Shown in pieces: positions 4,110 through 16,451 of a stretch of DNA of 64,000 bases (the first letter of the stretch is position 1; the number at the start of each line of letters is the position of its first letter). The notes under the pieces are model-generated. The model searched no databases and was not told the DNA's origin. It saw only the letters and a list, made by a program, of their open reading frames with translations. Position numbers and translations under genes: made by a program. This DNA comes from an uncultured Bordetella sp. (lineage in GTDB: Bacteria > Pseudomonadota > Gammaproteobacteria > Burkholderiales > SG8-41): the NCBI GenBank assembly GCA_964533495.1, contig CAZHJU010000014.1, forward strand, positions 2,421 to 66,420, in the 5' to 3' direction.

Positions 4110-5006
4110 TCAGCCCCGCGGATGATGTTTCGCATGCAGCTGCTTCATGCGCTCCCGCGCGACATGGGTGTAGATCTGCGTGGTCGAAATGTCGGAATGC
4201 CCGAGCAACAGCTGCACCACGCGCAGGTCGGCGCCGTGGTTCAGCAGATGGGTGGCGAAGGCATGGCGCAGCGTGTGCGGTGAAACCGGCTTGCCGATTC
4301 CCGCCTGCGCGGCGTAGCGCCGCAGCAGGTGCCAGAAAGCCTGGCGCGTCATCGCGTCCGCCCGGCCGGTGACGAACAGGGCATCGCTGGTCCGTCCGCC
4401 CAGCAGCAGCGGCCGCGCTTCGCGCAGGTAGCGCTCCAGCCAGGACAGCGCCTCCTCGCCCAGCGGCACCAGCCGCTCCTTGGAACCCTTGCCCAGCACC
4501 CGCACCACGCCCATGTCGCGGCTGACCTGCGGCACCTTCAGCGTCACCAGTTCGGACACACGCAGGCCGCTGGCGTAGAGCACTTCCAGCATCGCCCGAT
4601 CGCGCAGGCCCAGCGGCCGGTCCAGGTCAGGCGCCGACAGCAGGCTCTCGACGTCCGCCTCGGTCAGCGTTTTCGGCAGCGGCCGCGGCAGTTTCGGGGT
4701 GTCGATGCGCAGCGTCGGATCGGCCTTGACCGTGTTCTGGCGGACTGCGTTGCGGTAGAACCGCTTCAGCGCCGACAGCAGCCGCGCGGCGGTGGAAGCC
4801 CGCGCCCTGGTGCGGAAACGGTGCGCGAGATAGCCCTGTATTGCCGCCTGGTCCGCCGCCAGCAGATCCAGGCCCTGCGGCTCCAGCCAGCCGGCGAACT
4901 GCTTCAGGTCGCGGCGATAGCTGTCCAGCGTGTTGCGGGCGAGGCCGTCCTCCAGCCACAGCGCATCGCAGAACTCGTCAATCAGCCGCAGCGAGGAAGC
5001 CTTCAT
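4110..5006 (-). CDS. xerD: Site-specific tyrosine recombinase XerD
   Basis: LEDGLARNTLDSYRRDL, RDRAMLEVLYASGLRVSEL, GKGSKERLVP, SPHTLRHAFATHLLNHGADLR..LGHSDISTTQIYTHV, HHPRG C-terminus. Confidence 0.97.
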   Translation of the reverse strand: MKASSLRLIDEFCDALWLEDGLARNTLDSYRRDLKQFAGWLEPQGLDLLAADQAAIQGYLAHRFRTRARASTAARLLSALKRFYRNAVRQNTVKADPTLRIDTPKLPRPLPKTLTEADVESLLSAPDLDRPLGLRDRAMLEVLYASGLRVSELVTLKVPQVSRDMGVVRVLGKGSKERLVPLGEEALSWLERYLREARPLLLGGRTSDALFVTGRADAMTRQAFWHLLRRYAAQAGIGKPVSPHTLRHAFATHLLNHGADLRVVQLLLGHSDISTTQIYTHVARERMKQLHAKHHPRG

Positions 5007-5472
5007 GCCGCAGCAGCCAGCGTTTGACCGTCAGCGGGAAATCCTTCCGCCCGCCCATGAAACCGCCCAGCCCGCCTCCCGCGGCAAGCACGCGATGGCA
5101 GGGCACGACCAGCGGCACCGGGTTCGTGCCGCAGGCGCCGCCCACGGCCCGCGCGCTGCTTTGCAGGCACGCTGCGATTTTTCCATAAGTTATTGTTTTT
5201 AAAGGAAAAAGTTTTTCTATTTCGCGCCATACCCGTTGCTGGAACGCAGTGCCATGCAGGCGGTAGGGTAACGCGAAATGATGCTGCGGATCGGCCAGAT
5301 AACGTTCGATCTCGCGGCAGGCGCGCTCGGCCACGCGGTCGTGCGGAGCGCGCTGCGCGGTATGCCGCGGCAGGTAACGGATTTCCGTGACATGCCCGTC
5401 GTCGGTGGCGATCGCCAGCACGGCAAACGGTGTCAAGTAACGCGTCTCGACGCGCGCCCGACCCGCGGTCAT
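4978..5472 (-). CDS. ogt: Methylated-DNA-[protein]-cysteine S-methyltransferase
   Basis: C-terminal 164 aa of track ORF 4978..6033: GTAFQQRVW, TYGKIA, ARAVGGACGTNP, PCHRV active site. ATG at 5472 overlaps the TRAP permease stop. Confidence 0.9.
   Translation of the reverse strand: MTAGRARVETRYLTPFAVLAIATDDGHVTEIRYLPRHTAQRAPHDRVAERACREIERYLADPQHHFALPYRLHGTAFQQRVWREIEKLFPLKTITYGKIAACLQSSARAVGGACGTNPVPLVVPCHRVLAAGGGLGGFMGGRKDFPLTVKRWLLRHEGFLAAAD
5186..5198 (-). promoter_or_regulatory. IHF-consensus-like site embedded in the ogt coding sequence
   Basis: Minus strand AAAACAATAACTTATG (5184-5199) is identical over 16 nt to the site at 1185-1200. Confidence 0.6.
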
Positions 5473-7574
5473 GCCGGTGCGGCCGCCGTTCCCCGGCGCA
5501 GTTTCTGCATCACCACCACCAGCGCGACCAGCGAGGCGCCGATCAGGTCCGAAGTCGTGGTCGGATAGACCAGCGCAAGGCCGGCGACGATCAGCATCCA
5601 GCGTTCGACGACATTGGTCCTGCGCAGCAGCCAGCCCTGCAGTCCGCCGGCCAGCGCGAGTACGCCGATGACCGCGGTGACCGAGACGACCGCGATGGAC
5701 CCCCAGTCCGCCTGCGCCAGGTTCTTGAAGGAACCGCCGAGGAGCAGGCCCGCGCCGGACGGATCGAGCACGAACATGAACGGCACCAGGAAGGCCGGCG
5801 CGCAGTATTTCCAGGACAGCAGCGTCGTGCGGTACGGCCCGCCACCGGTGATCGCCGCCGCGGCGAATGGCGACAGCGCGGTGGGCGGCGACACTTCCGA
5901 CAGCACCGCATAGTAGAAAATGAACATGTGCGCGGCGAAGTCCGGCACGCCGAGCTTGATCATCGCCGGCGCCGCAACCACCGCGCAGATGATGTACGAA
6001 GCCGTCACCGGCACCGCCAGGCCGACGATCCACACGATCAATGCCGTGTAGAAGGCGGTCAGCAGCAGTTTCATGTCATGCAGCAGCTCCGGCGTATTCG
6101 CCGCGCCGAACACGGTCAACAGGGTCACCAGCCCCTGCGCGCCGGAATCGGCGTAATCCAGCACGATCGCGCTGAACTTCAGGCCGAGGCCGGTCAGCGT
6201 CACCACGCCGACGATGATGCCGGCGGATGCGCAGGTCATCGCGACGTTGAGCACGCCCACCGAACCCGCCTCCAGCGCCTTCACGAAGCCCGATTCCCAG
6301 AACCCCCTGATCCAGGCCATGCGGCCGCGGAACCAGTCATAGGGAATCAGGGCCGAATCGCTGCGGAAGAACGAAAACAGCGCGGTGACGACCGTGGCGT
6401 AGAACACCGACAGCACCGGCGAATAGCCCATCAGCAGGAACACGACGATCGACACCAGCGAAACGAAGTGGTACCAGTATTTTTTCGCCAGTTCGAGCGG
6501 GCGGTGATGCTTCTCGAGGGCCACCGCGCGCATGTTGAACTTGCGCGCGTCGATTTCGACCATGATGAAAATCCCGAGATAGAACAGCAGGGTCGGGATC
6601 GTCGCCATCAGGATCACGTCGAGGTACGAAATCTTCAGGAACTCCGCGATCAGGAATGCCGCGGCGCCGAGGACCGGCGGCGAGATGATCGCGCCCAGCC
6701 CGCCGGCCGCCAGCAATCCGCCGGCCGCCTCCTTGCCGTAACCTGCCTTGGCCAGCAACGGATAGGCCACCGCGCCGATGGTCACCGTGGTGGCGACGCC
6801 GGAACCCGAGGGACCGCCGAGCAGGAACGAGGACATCACCACCGCGCGTCCCGCGCTGGAGGGCTTGCCGCCCATCGCCGCGAACGAGAAATCGAGGAAA
6901 AACTTGCCGGCGCCCGAAAACTGCAGGAAGGCGCCGAAAATGGTGAACAGGATGATCAGCGTCGAGGACACGTCGACCGCGACGCCGAATATGCCCTCCA
7001 GCGTCATGTACAGCGCGCCGGTAAGCCGCGCGATGTCATAGCCCTTGTGCGTCCAGGGCTGGGGCAGATAGGGGCCGAACAGCGCGTAGGCCAGGAACAG
7101 CAGCACGATGAACGGCAGTATCCAGGTCGAGCTGCGGCGGTTGGCCTCGAGAATCAGCACGATCAGCGCCACGCCCAAGATCTGGTCCATCAGCAGCGGC
7201 GTCACCGCGCGATCGCCGAACTCGTCGCCCCAGTACAGCATGTAGGCCACCACGGCGATCGAGGCGATCGCAAAAATGACATCCCACCACATCAGCCGGT
7301 GGCGGAAACGTCTGGCGATCGGGAACAGCAGGAACGTCAGCGCCAGCGCGAAAGCGACGTGGACCGGACGCAGTATGTAGGCCGGCACGATCTCCACAGC
7401 AGCATAGAGATGGAACAGCGACATGATCACGGCCGCCGCGGTGAGCATCACCGCCAGCGCGCCGCGATAGCGGTTGTGCGCCCCCTCTTCCTCTTCGATC
7501 AGTTCCTCGACGCGTTTGAGCGCCTCTTCACTGATCCCGCCGGCATCCGCCGCCCCGGTGCTGTGATCGGCCAT
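5469..7574 (-). CDS. TRAP transporter fused permease (4TM/12TM, DctQM)
   Basis: About 700 aa polytopic protein with GSGVATTVTIG, GAIISPPVLGAAAFLIAE and LSEVSPPTALSPFAAAAI motifs; follows a TAXI receptor. Confidence 0.93.
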   Translation of the reverse strand: MADHSTGAADAGGISEEALKRVEELIEEEEGAHNRYRGALAVMLTAAAVIMSLFHLYAAVEIVPAYILRPVHVAFALALTFLLFPIARRFRHRLMWWDVIFAIASIAVVAYMLYWGDEFGDRAVTPLLMDQILGVALIVLILEANRRSSTWILPFIVLLFLAYALFGPYLPQPWTHKGYDIARLTGALYMTLEGIFGVAVDVSSTLIILFTIFGAFLQFSGAGKFFLDFSFAAMGGKPSSAGRAVVMSSFLLGGPSGSGVATTVTIGAVAYPLLAKAGYGKEAAGGLLAAGGLGAIISPPVLGAAAFLIAEFLKISYLDVILMATIPTLLFYLGIFIMVEIDARKFNMRAVALEKHHRPLELAKKYWYHFVSLVSIVVFLLMGYSPVLSVFYATVVTALFSFFRSDSALIPYDWFRGRMAWIRGFWESGFVKALEAGSVGVLNVAMTCASAGIIVGVVTLTGLGLKFSAIVLDYADSGAQGLVTLLTVFGAANTPELLHDMKLLLTAFYTALIVWIVGLAVPVTASYIICAVVAAPAMIKLGVPDFAAHMFIFYYAVLSEVSPPTALSPFAAAAITGGGPYRTTLLSWKYCAPAFLVPFMFVLDPSGAGLLLGGSFKNLAQADWGSIAVVSVTAVIGVLALAGGLQGWLLRRTNVVERWMLIVAGLALVYPTTTSDLIGASLVALVVVMQKLRRGTAAAPA

Positions 7575-13003: not shown

Positions 13004-13990
13004 CTATGCGCCGGAGCACGCGGCAACTTCCGGATTCAGCAGGTTGCGCCGGTCGTACGCCTCGCCGCGCAGCCAGCCGATGATGTTGTTCGCGGCAATC
13101 GTGCCCATGCGCACCATCGCCTGCGTGGTCGCCGCGGCGATGTGCGGCGTGACGATCACGTTGGGCAGCGCAAACAGCGGATTCGCCGGATCCGGTGGCT
13201 CCACTGCGAAGGTATCGAGGCCGGCCGCCGCCAGCCGGCCACTGGCCAGCGCCGCCACCAGCGCCGTCTCGTCGACCACCGGGCCGCGCGCGGTGTTGAT
13301 CAGGATTGCGCCCGGTTTCATCCGCGCGAACTGCGCAGCGCCGATCAGGCCCCGCGTTTTTTCGGTCAGCGGGCAGTGCAGGCTGACGATGTCGGCACGC
13401 TCCAGCAGCCGGTCGAACGCCGCTTCCCGCGCCATGCCCTCCGGCAACACGGCCTCCGAACGGGTGTGCACCAGCACCTGCGCGCCGCAGGCCTGCGCCA
13501 GCCGCGCCGTGCGCTCGCCGATCTGGCCGAAGCCGACGATGCCGACCGTGCGTTCGCGGAAATCCCGCGTTAAATGATTGAGGTCGCGCCAGCGGCCCTG
13601 CCGCGTCGCGCGGTCGAAACCCGGCAGCTCGCGGCACAGCGCCAGCATCATCATCAGCGCGTGCTCGGCCACCGCGTCCGCGTTCGCGCCGCCCGCGACC
13701 ATCACCGCCACGCCGCGACGCGTCGCCGCGGCGACGTCCACCGAATCCACGCCGGCGCCGTGCTTGGCCACGATCTTCAGCCCGCGCGCCGCCTCGAACA
13801 CCCGCGCCGTCAGCGGCGGCGAACCGCGCAGCAGCACCGCGGCGACCCTGCCCGTCGACAGCGCCCGCAGCAGCGCATCCTCGTCGATGGTTCCCGGCAT
13901 GAACTCGATCTCCGCGCCGCCTTCGCGCAGCAGGCCCTGCGCGAGGTCGGACACGGTGGCGGCGGTGACGAGGACGACCGGTTTGCTCAC
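13004..13990 (-). CDS. D-isomer-specific 2-hydroxyacid dehydrogenase (SerA/hydroxypyruvate reductase-like)
   Basis: HGAGVDSVD, VAEHA, GIVGFGQIG, LINTARG, LDTFAVEP, TPHIAA; GTG start. Confidence 0.93.
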   Translation of the reverse strand: MSKPVVLVTAATVSDLAQGLLREGGAEIEFMPGTIDEDALLRALSTGRVAAVLLRGSPPLTARVFEAARGLKIVAKHGAGVDSVDVAAATRRGVAVMVAGGANADAVAEHALMMMLALCRELPGFDRATRQGRWRDLNHLTRDFRERTVGIVGFGQIGERTARLAQACGAQVLVHTRSEAVLPEGMAREAAFDRLLERADIVSLHCPLTEKTRGLIGAAQFARMKPGAILINTARGPVVDETALVAALASGRLAAAGLDTFAVEPPDPANPLFALPNVIVTPHIAAATTQAMVRMGTIAANNIIGWLRGEAYDRRNLLNPEVAACSGA

Positions 13991-15139: not shown

Positions 15140-15330
15140 GCCCAAACATCACGCCGGCAGTCCTGCATCCGCAACTGCCGGCGGCATGTCCGCGACAAGA
15201 CGGTCGCACCCAGCCACCGCCCGGCGGAATAGAAGGATGCTGCCGCCTGTTCCACACGCAGGCGACGGCCTCCGGCTAGAATGGCCATGCAGTCCGTCCG
15301 CAGTCTGCCATCAGACCATTCGGAGACACC

Positions 15331-15855
15331 ATGCACCCGCTACGATCCCTCCTCACCGCCGGCGCGTTTGTCCTGGGTTTCGCGCTGGCAGGCCCCGTGG
15401 CAGCCGGCACCCTCGCGCCGCTGCCGCAGCCGACGCCGATGCCCTCGTTCAAGATCCCGGGCATCAACGGCAGCGGCGGCAGCGATGCCGACCTGCGCAA
15501 CAAGGTCACCATCATCCGCTTCTGGGCGTCGTGGTGAAGCTCCTGCGTACGCGAGCTGCCCTCCGTGCAGAGGGCGCATGACGAACTGAAAAAAGACGGC
15601 ATCCAGGTCATCACCATCTCGATCGACGGTACCGGAGGAACCGCCGTCAAGCCGATCTTCGCCAAGGGCGGCTACACCATGCCCGCGCTGCTCGACCAGG
15701 ACATGAGCGTCGCCCGCGGTTTCGGCGTGCGCGGCGTGCCATCCACGGTCATCGTCGACAAAAAAGGGCTGATCAACGCACGCGGCCTCGGCCACGTCGA
15801 TTTCGACGGCCGGGTGCTGCGCAACTACGCGCGCGACCTCGCCCGCATCAAGTGA
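15331..15855 (+). CDS. TlpA/ResA-like thiol-disulfide oxidoreductase, probable selenoprotein (UxxC; TGA at 15535-15537 read as Sec, codon 69)
   Basis: Track ORFs 15331..15537 and 15565..15855 are in the same frame. Reading through TGA gives RFWASW-U-SSC-VRELPS...GVPSTVIVD, the TlpA FWAxWCxxC motif plus the cis-Pro loop. N-terminal signal peptide. Confidence 0.88.
15557..15576 (+). promoter_or_regulatory. Candidate bacterial SECIS hairpin for the TlpA-like gene
   Basis: TGCCCTC-CGTGCA-GAGGGCG stem-loop; loop starts 26 nt after the TGA and has G at position 2. Confidence 0.55.
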
Positions 15856-15875
15856 ATCGTCAACGGAGGACCACG

Positions 15876-16451
15876 ATGTCGAAGCTGCCACTGCTGCACC
15901 GCTGGATCGCCGCCGCCCTGCTCGGCGCCGCCATGCTGCTCGCCGCGCCCGCGCAGGCCCAGGTGCCGAAACCCGGCGACAGGGCGCCCGCGTTTTCCGT
16001 GATGTCCACCACCGGCAAGCCGGCGGCGCTCGCGGATTACCTCGGAAAGAAGAACGTCGTCCTGTTCTTCTACATCGCCGCCTTCACCGATACGTGAACG
16101 ACCGAAGTCGTGGCCTTCCAACTCGATCTCCCCGAGTTCGAGGCCACCAATGCCCAGGTCCTGGGCATCAGTGTCGATTTCAACGCCGCCAACACCGAGT
16201 TCGCCGCCAAGCTCGGGCTGAAGTTTCCGCTGCTCAGCGACACCCGCCGCGAGATGACCCGCGCCTACGGCGTGCTCAACGACGATCCGGCGCTGGCGAA
16301 GGACGGCAAACGCATCGCCGCCTACCTGCGCGCCAAGCGCTCGTGGTTCATCATCGACCGCGAAGGCATCGTCCGCTACGCCAACGTCAACGATCCGCGC
16401 GGCATCATGCCCAACGACGAACTGCTGGACGTACTGCGCAAGCTGAAATAA
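15876..16451 (+). CDS. Peroxiredoxin (AhpC/TSA, BCP-like), probable selenoprotein (TGA at 16095-16097 read as Sec, codon 74)
   Basis: Track ORFs 15852..16097 and 16110..16451 are in the same frame. Readthrough gives VVLFFYIAAFTDT-U-TTE, matching the Prx FYPxxxTxxCTxE motif; also LGISVD, FPLLSD and RSWFIID. GGAGG RBS and signal peptide. Confidence 0.88.
16098..16147 (+). promoter_or_regulatory. Candidate SECIS hairpin(s) for the peroxiredoxin
   Basis: GTGGCCTT..AACTCG-ATCTCCC-CGAGTT..GAGGCCAC (16110-16147) starts 12 nt after the TGA. An alternative ACGAC-CGAA-GTCGT hairpin (16098-16111) starts immediately after it. Confidence 0.5.

Follow-up and report, generated by a model that had tools for sequence, protein, structure and literature searches.

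The periplasmic peroxide pathway of Caulobacter crescentus runs from ScsB through TlpA to PprX, a peroxiredoxin (Prx) of the PrxQ type (Cho et al. 2012, mBio, PMC3322552), and according to the same authors Bordetella and Burkholderia possess PprX with DsbD in place of ScsB. Peroxiredoxins containing selenocysteine (Sec, U) have been catalogued in prokaryotic selenoproteomes under PF00578 with the motif TxxU, including PrxU (NF040737) (PMC2398784; PMC13188914). A 'Prx-like thiol:disulfide oxidoreductase', or Prx-like 1, also of PF00578 and bearing the motif UxxC, is likewise recorded (reference 12 in PMC13188914; GOS table of PMC2398784). Here we describe a locus in which two genes related to these proteins stand in tandem. 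It lies in a stretch of 64,000 nucleotides, referred to here as the window, from an uncultured Bordetella sp. (GenBank assembly GCA_964533495.1, contig CAZHJU010000014.1, positions 2,421 to 66,420 of the forward strand); positions are counted from its first letter. Gene 1 encodes a predicted exported TlpA/ResA-like redoxin and gene 2 a predicted exported peroxiredoxin, and each contains one in-frame TGA.

Taken as a whole, the locus is probably best explained as an operon of two exported selenoproteins that act as a peroxide-reduction relay fed by DsbD. That the two frames constitute a single two-gene operon is strongly supported. An initial annotation of the window had read here two consecutive genes separated by 20 nt, with a GGAGG ribosome-binding site before the second, a TGA at the redox-active Cys position of each, a signal peptide on each product, a hairpin after each TGA and no Cys in the read-through peroxiredoxin. 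The gap and the ribosome-binding site can be read directly in the sequence (Table 1), and GGAG-type sites occur at the same place before gene 2 in orthologous loci. Translation and Pfam searches agree on a single in-frame TGA at the redox-active Cys position of each gene, after which the frame continues with the motifs of its family, and translation also confirmed the lack of Cys in the peroxiredoxin. Signal-peptide-like N-termini and folding hairpins were found as described and are retained in orthologues, the hairpins with covariation. The sequences spanning the Sec residues read WASW-U-SSCVR in gene 1 and AAFTDT-U-TTEVVAFQLDLPEFEATNAQ in gene 2.

Recoding of the in-frame UGA codons

Both genes are almost certainly genuine selenoprotein genes in which UGA is recoded by SelB and tRNA-Sec, a conclusion drawn from the genome sequence and its comparison with relatives. 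The genome is a metagenome-assembled genome (MAG) of 3.03 Mb in 83 contigs with a G+C content of 65.8% and a completeness of 97%; the window lies on contig C14. Its tRNA-Sec (75.9 bits against RF01852; identified by ARAGORN as SeC, anticodon tca) is situated on contig C11 adjoining selB (436.8 bits) and selA (580.7 bits), while selD (424.8 bits) is found on C46; all four genes scored above their curated cut-offs. TGA is nevertheless the commonest stop codon, ending 777 of 1124 long open reading frames (ORFs; 69%), and it is also the terminator of gene 1. This usage as an ordinary stop indicates that the genetic code has not been reassigned.

Read-through without Sec would take one of two forms: a reassigned TGA could stand for Trp or Gly, as in code 4 or 25, or Trp or Cys could be inserted by a near-cognate tRNA, with the hairpin as a generic stimulator. 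Several family proteins held at JGI (P0005, P0007, P0009 and others) do have Trp at the Sec column, a product of pipelines in which TGA is set to Trp. The stop usage of the genome, including the end of gene 1, speaks against decoding of this kind, as does the complete selA/selB/selC/selD set. The UGA moreover falls exactly at the redox Cys of homologues, where Trp would kill the active site, and the genome has further classic selenoprotein genes of the UGSC family and a second Sec-Prx. We consider read-through without Sec very improbable.

Orthologues were sought by six-frame search in 61 related genomes, the window's own genome being excluded. A Prx orthologue with exactly one TGA was present in 33 of these, at 55-93% identity, and a TlpA-like orthologue with exactly one TGA in 31. 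When 28 loci from relatives were aligned with the window, the TGA column was identical in 29 of 29 sequences for each gene. The ratio dN/dS by the method of Nei and Gojobori (NG86), taken over 369-378 sequence pairs, was 0.19 before the TGA and 0.24 after it for gene 1; for gene 2 the corresponding values were 0.16 and 0.20. The similarity of the values on either side shows that the portions past the 'stop' are under the same purifying selection as the portions ahead of it.

Homologues of both genes carry Cys at the Sec column. For gene 2 these are P0020, P0120, P0121 and P0123; P0020, which is 57% identical to gene 2, reads FFYPGAFTNAC, and more distant homologues read FTPVC. For gene 1 the corresponding position is Cys in paralogues from the same genome (WCEPC, DCVTC) and in the syntenic partners of five loci, L100-L104 (FGATWCSSC).

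The remaining alternative is that the TGAs are nonsense mutations or assembly errors, leaving two pseudogenes or four unrelated short ORFs, and automatic annotation does treat the pieces in this way. The same-column TGA, however, recurs in over 60 independent assemblies that span several phyla, dN/dS stays at about 0.2 downstream of both TGAs, and a conserved, covarying hairpin follows each of them. The chance that this account is right is negligible. The pseudogene reading was regarded as effectively refuted by the conservation data, and reassignment of the genetic code was likewise rejected on the basis of dN/dS and TGA stop usage. The initial annotation had linked its reading to the presence of Sec machinery, to the lack of decay past the TGAs, to alternation of TGA and Cys at both columns and to retention of the gene pair in relatives; each of these was found, and the pair extends to MAGs of several phyla.

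SECIS-like hairpins

Each UGA is followed, within the gene, by a hairpin resembling a selenocysteine insertion sequence (SECIS; Table 1). The loop of the gene 1 hairpin begins 26 nt past the UGA. Across 32 distinct sequences from several phyla, 97.8% of the alignment cells in its stem are paired and three of the seven pairs show compensatory changes; the covariation score was reached by none of 500 shuffles, a control that makes no correction for relatedness. The loop, CGUGCA, is invariant in 49 unique sequences, synonymous third positions included. The fold of the gene 2 hairpin is unusually stable (z = -4.26), with none of 200 shuffles as good. Its 12-pair stem has 99.7% of cells paired over 25 distinct sequences, with two compensatory pairs, and under the same control its covariation score was again reached by none of 500 shuffles. 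In ESR-type sequences the lower stem is re-registered and still present.

Some compensatory changes in the stems come at the cost of an amino acid: Ser to Ala with AGG to CGG, Arg to Lys with CCC to CCU, and Lys to Glu with CUU to CUC. Variation in the protein (S/A, R/K, K/E/Q) thus follows the base changes of the stems (window positions 15538-15580 and 16098-16145), which indicates that the RNA structure is selected in its own right. Rare codons (AGG for Arg, GUA for Val) persist directly after the UGA of gene 1; their imposition by the SECIS accounts for the failure of a genome-wide codon log-odds scan for in-frame TGAs to detect this gene. The conclusion that an in-gene hairpin 20-30 nt past each UGA directs recoding, other UGAs terminating normally, is strongly supported.

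The predicted gene products

Gene 1 matched three Pfam families above cut-off, namely AhpC-TSA (4.8e-20, the best), Redoxin (2.5e-16) and Thioredoxin_8 (3.5e-10). Its best relatives in the PDB are 3kcm, a thioredoxin-family protein of Geobacter, together with ResA, DsbE/CcmG and TlpA. The active site reads W-U69-S-S-C72 and is accompanied by a conserved GVPST cis-Pro loop, and the motif of the clade is FWASW-U-xxC-x-E-M/L-PSVQ. The product fell below every NCBIfam equivalog cut-off, the top match, NF041054, reaching 71.3 bits where 300 are required. The initial annotation had named it a Sec-thioredoxin. The UxxC thioredoxin-fold selenoprotein in that name stands; as a name for the predicted product, however, thiol:disulfide oxidoreductase of the TlpA/ResA-like ('Prx-like') type is preferable to thioredoxin.

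Gene 2 matched AhpC-TSA (PF00578) at E = 1.4e-33, its score of 115.9 bits exceeding the Pfam gathering cut-off of 26. Among PDB structures it comes closest to two archaeal peroxiredoxins of the BCP type, 2ywn and 3hjp (about 3e-23), with which it aligns at the catalytic Thr, at the peroxidatic position and at the conserved Arg; the Arg of AKR-SWFIID corresponds to that of AKR-AVFVID in 2ywn. Within the active site, I-A-A-F-T71-D-T-U74, both T71 and U74 are invariant among orthologues. Since the read-through product contains no Cys whatsoever, it has no resolving residue. The resolving Cys of BCP/PrxQ proteins (C-xxxx-C) is accordingly missing, Cys-containing relatives reading CTKELC where the Sec clade reads UTTEVVAF, which places the protein in a 1-Sec type. 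Among the active-site contexts of the Prx (loci L066-L145; window positions 16074-16097), about 30 distinct Sec contexts lack the active-site Pro and two retain it, whereas all 25 Cys-form contexts possess both the Pro and the resolving Cys (FFP..FT..C-TKEL-C); these are raw counts, not corrected for phylogeny. As with gene 1, the cut-off was reached for none of the NCBIfam models, PrxU (NF040737, 47.7 against 270 bits) and Prx-SUH (NF045827, 31.3 against 298) included. Gene 2 is predicted to encode a BCP/PrxQ-like 1-Sec peroxiredoxin.

Both N-termini have a short charged start followed by a hydrophobic core with a Kyte-Doolittle mean above 2, as judged by profile and by eye. That of gene 1 has neither a twin-Arg motif nor a lipobox Cys, and its hydrophobicity, which is maintained among orthologues, fits cleaved and anchored forms alike. 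Orthologues of gene 2 also retain a signal peptide-like N-terminus. On the strength of these N-terminal sequences, both products are probably exported via the Sec secretion pathway.

Distribution and conservation of the pair

In the related genomes that bear orthologues, genes 1 and 2 were always adjacent and in unchanged order, with the exception of one genome, G002, which is considered below. A scan of species-representative genomes yielded 80 loci. The pair with Sec in both proteins occurs in many Burkholderiales/Betaproteobacteria, in Entotheonella/Tectimicrobiota, in one member of the Planctomycetota and in one gammaproteobacterial MAG. A sister group, in which the Sec-Prx is accompanied by a CxxC partner, is represented by MAGs of Deltaproteobacteria, Myxococcales, Rokuibacteriota and Methylomirabilia. 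In an even sample of the order, the Prx was present in 13 of 401 genomes (4 of 167 genera), in every case with TGA.

Of the families found at the 39 closest loci, only genes 1 and 2 were common to nearly all, one being present in 39 loci and the other in 37; the other clusters of neighbouring ORFs were present in 25 loci or fewer, or else represented high-GC noise. Clustering of neighbouring ORFs, in which those other clusters were dominated by spurious high-GC ORFs, thus revealed no third partner common to nearly all loci. A search of open-access papers found no published periplasmic pair of a Sec-TlpA and a Sec-Prx.

A D-2-hydroxyacid-dehydrogenase-like gene was observed within a few kb of the pair, at positions 13004-13990 on the minus strand of the window and at about 4720-5790 on the plus strand in loci L089, L093, L096 and L098. 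Such a neighbour is present in 12 loci from Burkholderiales MAGs and Entotheonella/Tectimicrobiota, and may point to horizontal transfer or to a shared block of genes that extends beyond the pair.

Proposed electron source and relay

The initial annotation had expected the electron supply to be encoded elsewhere in the genome. A single full-length DsbD of 601 amino acids is indeed found on contig C1, with alpha, transmembrane (TM) and gamma (WCVSC) parts; its DsbD_TM match (332 bits) is the only one in the genome, and the gene is unlinked to the pair.

In the proposed relay, Sec74 of the Prx, activated by Thr71 and the conserved Arg, would reduce hydrogen peroxide or organic peroxides in the periplasm and be converted to a selenenic acid. 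Because the Prx lacks a resolving Cys of its own, this selenenic acid is proposed to be attacked directly by the nucleophilic Sec69 of its TlpA-like neighbour, giving an intermolecular Se-Se bond; in relatives with a CxxC partner the bond would be Se-S. Cys72 would then resolve the intermolecular bond, and the TlpA-like protein, now carrying an intramolecular selenenylsulfide, would be re-reduced by the DsbD with electrons from cytoplasmic thioredoxin.

Several observations weigh against the overall reading of the locus as two exported selenoproteins acting in such a relay. The gene 1 hairpin folded alone is not unusually stable (z = -1.5), and the apical loop of the gene 2 hairpin, AUCUCCC, contains no GU. 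The SECIS of Escherichia coli fdhF has GU in its apical loop. The near-universal Pro of the PxxxTxxC motif is absent from gene 2, Ile standing at U-7 (I, V, F or T among orthologues), so that peroxidase activity is assumed and not assured. In G002, a 98% complete genome of the same genus, the Sec-TlpA-like gene is intact (FWASW-U-GTC, with its hairpin; locus L146, G002:C31:5900-9000), the place of the Prx is taken by an unrelated gene of 700 aa that runs in the other direction, and no Prx orthologue was found elsewhere in the genome. Retention of the one gene without the other suggests that the TlpA-like protein may have other substrates. Lastly, a search of all ORFs with the TM domain of the genome's DsbD (phmmer) found DsbD or CcdA within 3 kb of the pair in none of the 80 loci.

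In an alternative account, both proteins are exported selenoproteins without forming a dedicated peroxide couple, their adjacency reflecting co-regulation only. The TlpA-like protein would then have other substrates in the envelope, for instance in the maturation of cytochromes or copper proteins, methionine sulfoxide reductase or protein sulfenic acids, and the Pro-less Prx would be a thiol or selenol oxidoreductase of a different kind, or would be reduced by DsbD-gamma without an intermediary. Roles in cytochrome and copper-protein maturation are established for those TlpA and ResA proteins that have been characterised. The state of G002 and the missing Pro fit this account, as does the finding that, in E. 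coli, TlpA was dispensable for the reduction of PprX by DsbD-gamma (PMC3322552). Against it stand the adjacency and order of the two genes, which are kept over several phyla while the remaining neighbours change, and the retention by the Prx of Thr, of Sec at the peroxidatic position and of Arg. A Prx lacking a resolving residue, furthermore, depends on a separate reductant, and the gene for one lies 20 nt upstream. Absence of a dedicated couple is considered unlikely.

Synteny, together with the Caulobacter ScsB-TlpA-PprX precedent, inclines us somewhat towards the pair being a functional peroxide-reducing couple. A more far-reaching form of the relay is offered only tentatively and would, on present odds, be the less expected outcome. 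In it the envelope relay would be obligate and all-selenium, with a Cys-free, Pro-less 1-Sec Prx recycled through a protein-protein diselenide with its dedicated TlpA-like partner, and this Burkholderiales lineage would have kept its Sec machinery to make UGSC proteins and to defend both envelope and cytoplasm against peroxides, rather than to make formate dehydrogenase. No description of a catalytic protein-protein diselenide was found in the searchable bacterial literature.

Features of the locus and its annotation in databases

The coordinates of the pair, and of the further selenoprotein genes described below, are collected in Table 1.

Table 1. Features of the selenoprotein gene pair (window positions) and further selenoprotein genes of the genome (contig positions)
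Feature	Position	Strand	Details
Gene 1	15331..15855	+	ATG at 15331; TGA stop at 15853-15855; 174 codons
Predicted Sec-type signal peptide or signal anchor, gene 1	15331..15405	+	MHPLRSLLTAGAFVLGFALAGPVAA followed by G; VAA/G site
Recoded TGA, gene 1	15535-15537	+	Codon 69 (U69); context FWASW-U-SSC; first Cys of WCxxC
SECIS-like hairpin, gene 1	15557..15576	+	7-bp stem UGCCCUC/GAGGGCG; loop CGUGCA
Intergenic gap	15856-15875		Exactly 20 nt
Ribosome-binding site, gene 2	15866..15870	+	GGAGG, inside the 20-nt gap
Gene 2	15876..16451	+	ATG at 15876; TAA at 16449-16451; 191 codons
Predicted Sec-type signal peptide, gene 2	15876..15959	+	MSKLPLLHRWIAAALLGAAMLLAAPAQA followed by QVPKPG; AQA/Q site
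Recoded TGA, gene 2	16095-16097	+	Codon 74 (U74); context FFYIAAFTDT-U-TTE; peroxidatic Cys position (TxxU)
SECIS-like hairpin, gene 2	16112..16145	+	Lower stem GGCCUU/GAGGCC; internal loop; upper stem AACUCG/CGAGUU; apical loop AUCUCCC
Cytoplasmic Sec-Prx	C9:66171-66620	-	AFMPFAFTGG-U-TNQ; TGA conserved in most genus members
UGSC-motif genes (three)	TGA at C1:37440, C1:39701 and C9:57394	-	One above the NF041046 cut-off, two below

A scan for promoters and terminators was uninformative both ahead of gene 1, where no sigma-70-like promoter was found, and past the end of gene 2. An inverted repeat at 15146-15175 (GCCGGCAGT...ACTGCCGGC), which is not followed by a T-run, is situated just 3' of an upstream gene of the Bug/TctC family. 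The repeat may serve as a terminator, or as a regulatory hairpin, separating that gene from the selenoprotein operon.

The initial annotation had also anticipated that standard pipelines would split the genes. In the public databases (NCBI, ENA) gene 2 is indeed represented mostly by a C-terminal fragment of 113 amino acids labelled 'redoxin domain-containing protein'. Nine 'full-length' Prx-family proteins at JGI (P0005, P0007, P0009, P0010, P0021, P0029, P0034, P0104 and P0122) have Trp at the Sec column, evidently as a result of the gene caller having taken TGA as Trp (code 4 or 25).

Other selenoproteins of the genome

Further selenoprotein genes were identified by a GC3-based rescan combined with a redox-motif filter and NCBIfam confirmation. 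At least four are present in addition to the pair: a cytoplasmic Sec-Prx and three genes with the UGSC motif (Table 1), one of the latter being fused to a C-terminal domain of about 400 amino acids. Most matches of the GC3-based scan were discarded as consecutive genes sharing one frame, such as rpsF/priB and soxY/soxZ.

A search of this 97%-complete MAG with one formate dehydrogenase model gave no FdnG-type match at the cut-off or with an in-frame stop. The initial annotation had noted that the selenoproteome of most characterised betaproteobacteria is largely limited to formate dehydrogenase; this does not hold for the present lineage, in which no FdnG-type Sec gene was found and other selenoproteins are present. 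The Sec machinery appears here to serve thioredoxin-fold and UGSC proteins.

Comparison with known systems

Both selenoprotein families are already known and have been in catalogues since 2004-2008, as the initial annotation had stated for Sec forms of Prx and of TlpA/thioredoxin-like proteins (PMC2398784; PMC13188914). Like the catalogued Sec-Prx, gene 2 belongs to PF00578 and has Sec at the peroxidatic TxxU position, an in-gene SECIS-like hairpin and Cys-containing homologues. The motif of the catalogued proteins is given as PxxxTxxU in the review, whereas the clade of gene 2 has I, V or F in place of the Pro. Gene 2 is further set apart by its predicted export, by its freedom from Cys and by its position outside the PrxU and Prx-SUH subfamilies, for both of which it lies far below the cut-offs.

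Gene 1 resembles the Prx-like UxxC selenoproteins in its best Pfam match (PF00578), its UxxC motif and its TlpA/ResA-type thioredoxin fold, and differs in representing a specific, predicted-exported clade fixed beside a Sec-Prx. In common with NF041054, the 'ResA-like WAxxUGC motif-containing protein', it is a ResA-like redoxin whose CxxC motif contains Sec. It falls outside that family, having 174 amino acids against 354 model positions and WASW-U-SS-C against WAxxUGC, with a score well short of the cut-off.

Among characterised structures, gene 2 can also be likened to AhpE of Mycobacterium (1xvw, 4x0x), in that it has a single catalytic chalcogen and no resolving residue and would require an external recycling partner. 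AhpE chains are among its PDB matches at about 1e-16, compared with about 3e-23 for 2ywn and 3hjp. AhpE is, however, cytoplasmic and Cys-based and keeps the Pro, and gene 2 is closer to the BCP/PrxQ chains.

The pairing of genes 1 and 2 is not recorded in the two selenoproteome catalogues (PMC2398784, PMC13188914). The novelty of the locus is modest, and consists in the conserved pairing, in the loss of both the canonical Pro and the resolving Cys, and in a selenoproteome without a detected Sec formate dehydrogenase. No new class of mechanism is opened. Curated NCBI selenoprotein models miss the module, and database entries are mostly fragments or mistranslations in which TGA is read as Trp; the exported antioxidant capacity and the selenium dependence of these mostly uncultured bacteria are consequently under-called. 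Should the relay prove true, the reasons for the replacement of Cys by Sec could be studied in a natural experiment, in which the Pro and the resolving Cys that Cys-peroxiredoxins retain are gone from the Sec forms. The switch between UxxC and CxxC partners in sister lineages would offer matched Se-Se and Se-S systems for comparison.

The closest parallel is the ScsB-TlpA-PprX pathway of Caulobacter. As there, a BCP/PrxQ-type Prx is combined with a TlpA-like protein, both predicted to be exported, in a genome with one DsbD; the likeness lies in the genes and family assignments found here. Unlike in the TlpA-PprX couple, both catalytic nucleophiles are selenocysteine, and the Prx is without the resolving Cys and the canonical Pro. 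Here a tight operon unites the two genes; the Caulobacter proteins are encoded under separate locus tags (CC2210, CC1673). If the relay operates as proposed, the only known periplasmic peroxiredoxin pathway, that of Caulobacter TlpA-PprX, would be extended to selenium chemistry. The core of the interpretation given in the initial annotation is supported. The operon is probably a selenium form of an envelope pathway already known, assembled from selenoprotein families that had both been described before, and its main practical value lies in annotation and in the comparison of Se-Se with Se-S systems that it offers to enzymologists.

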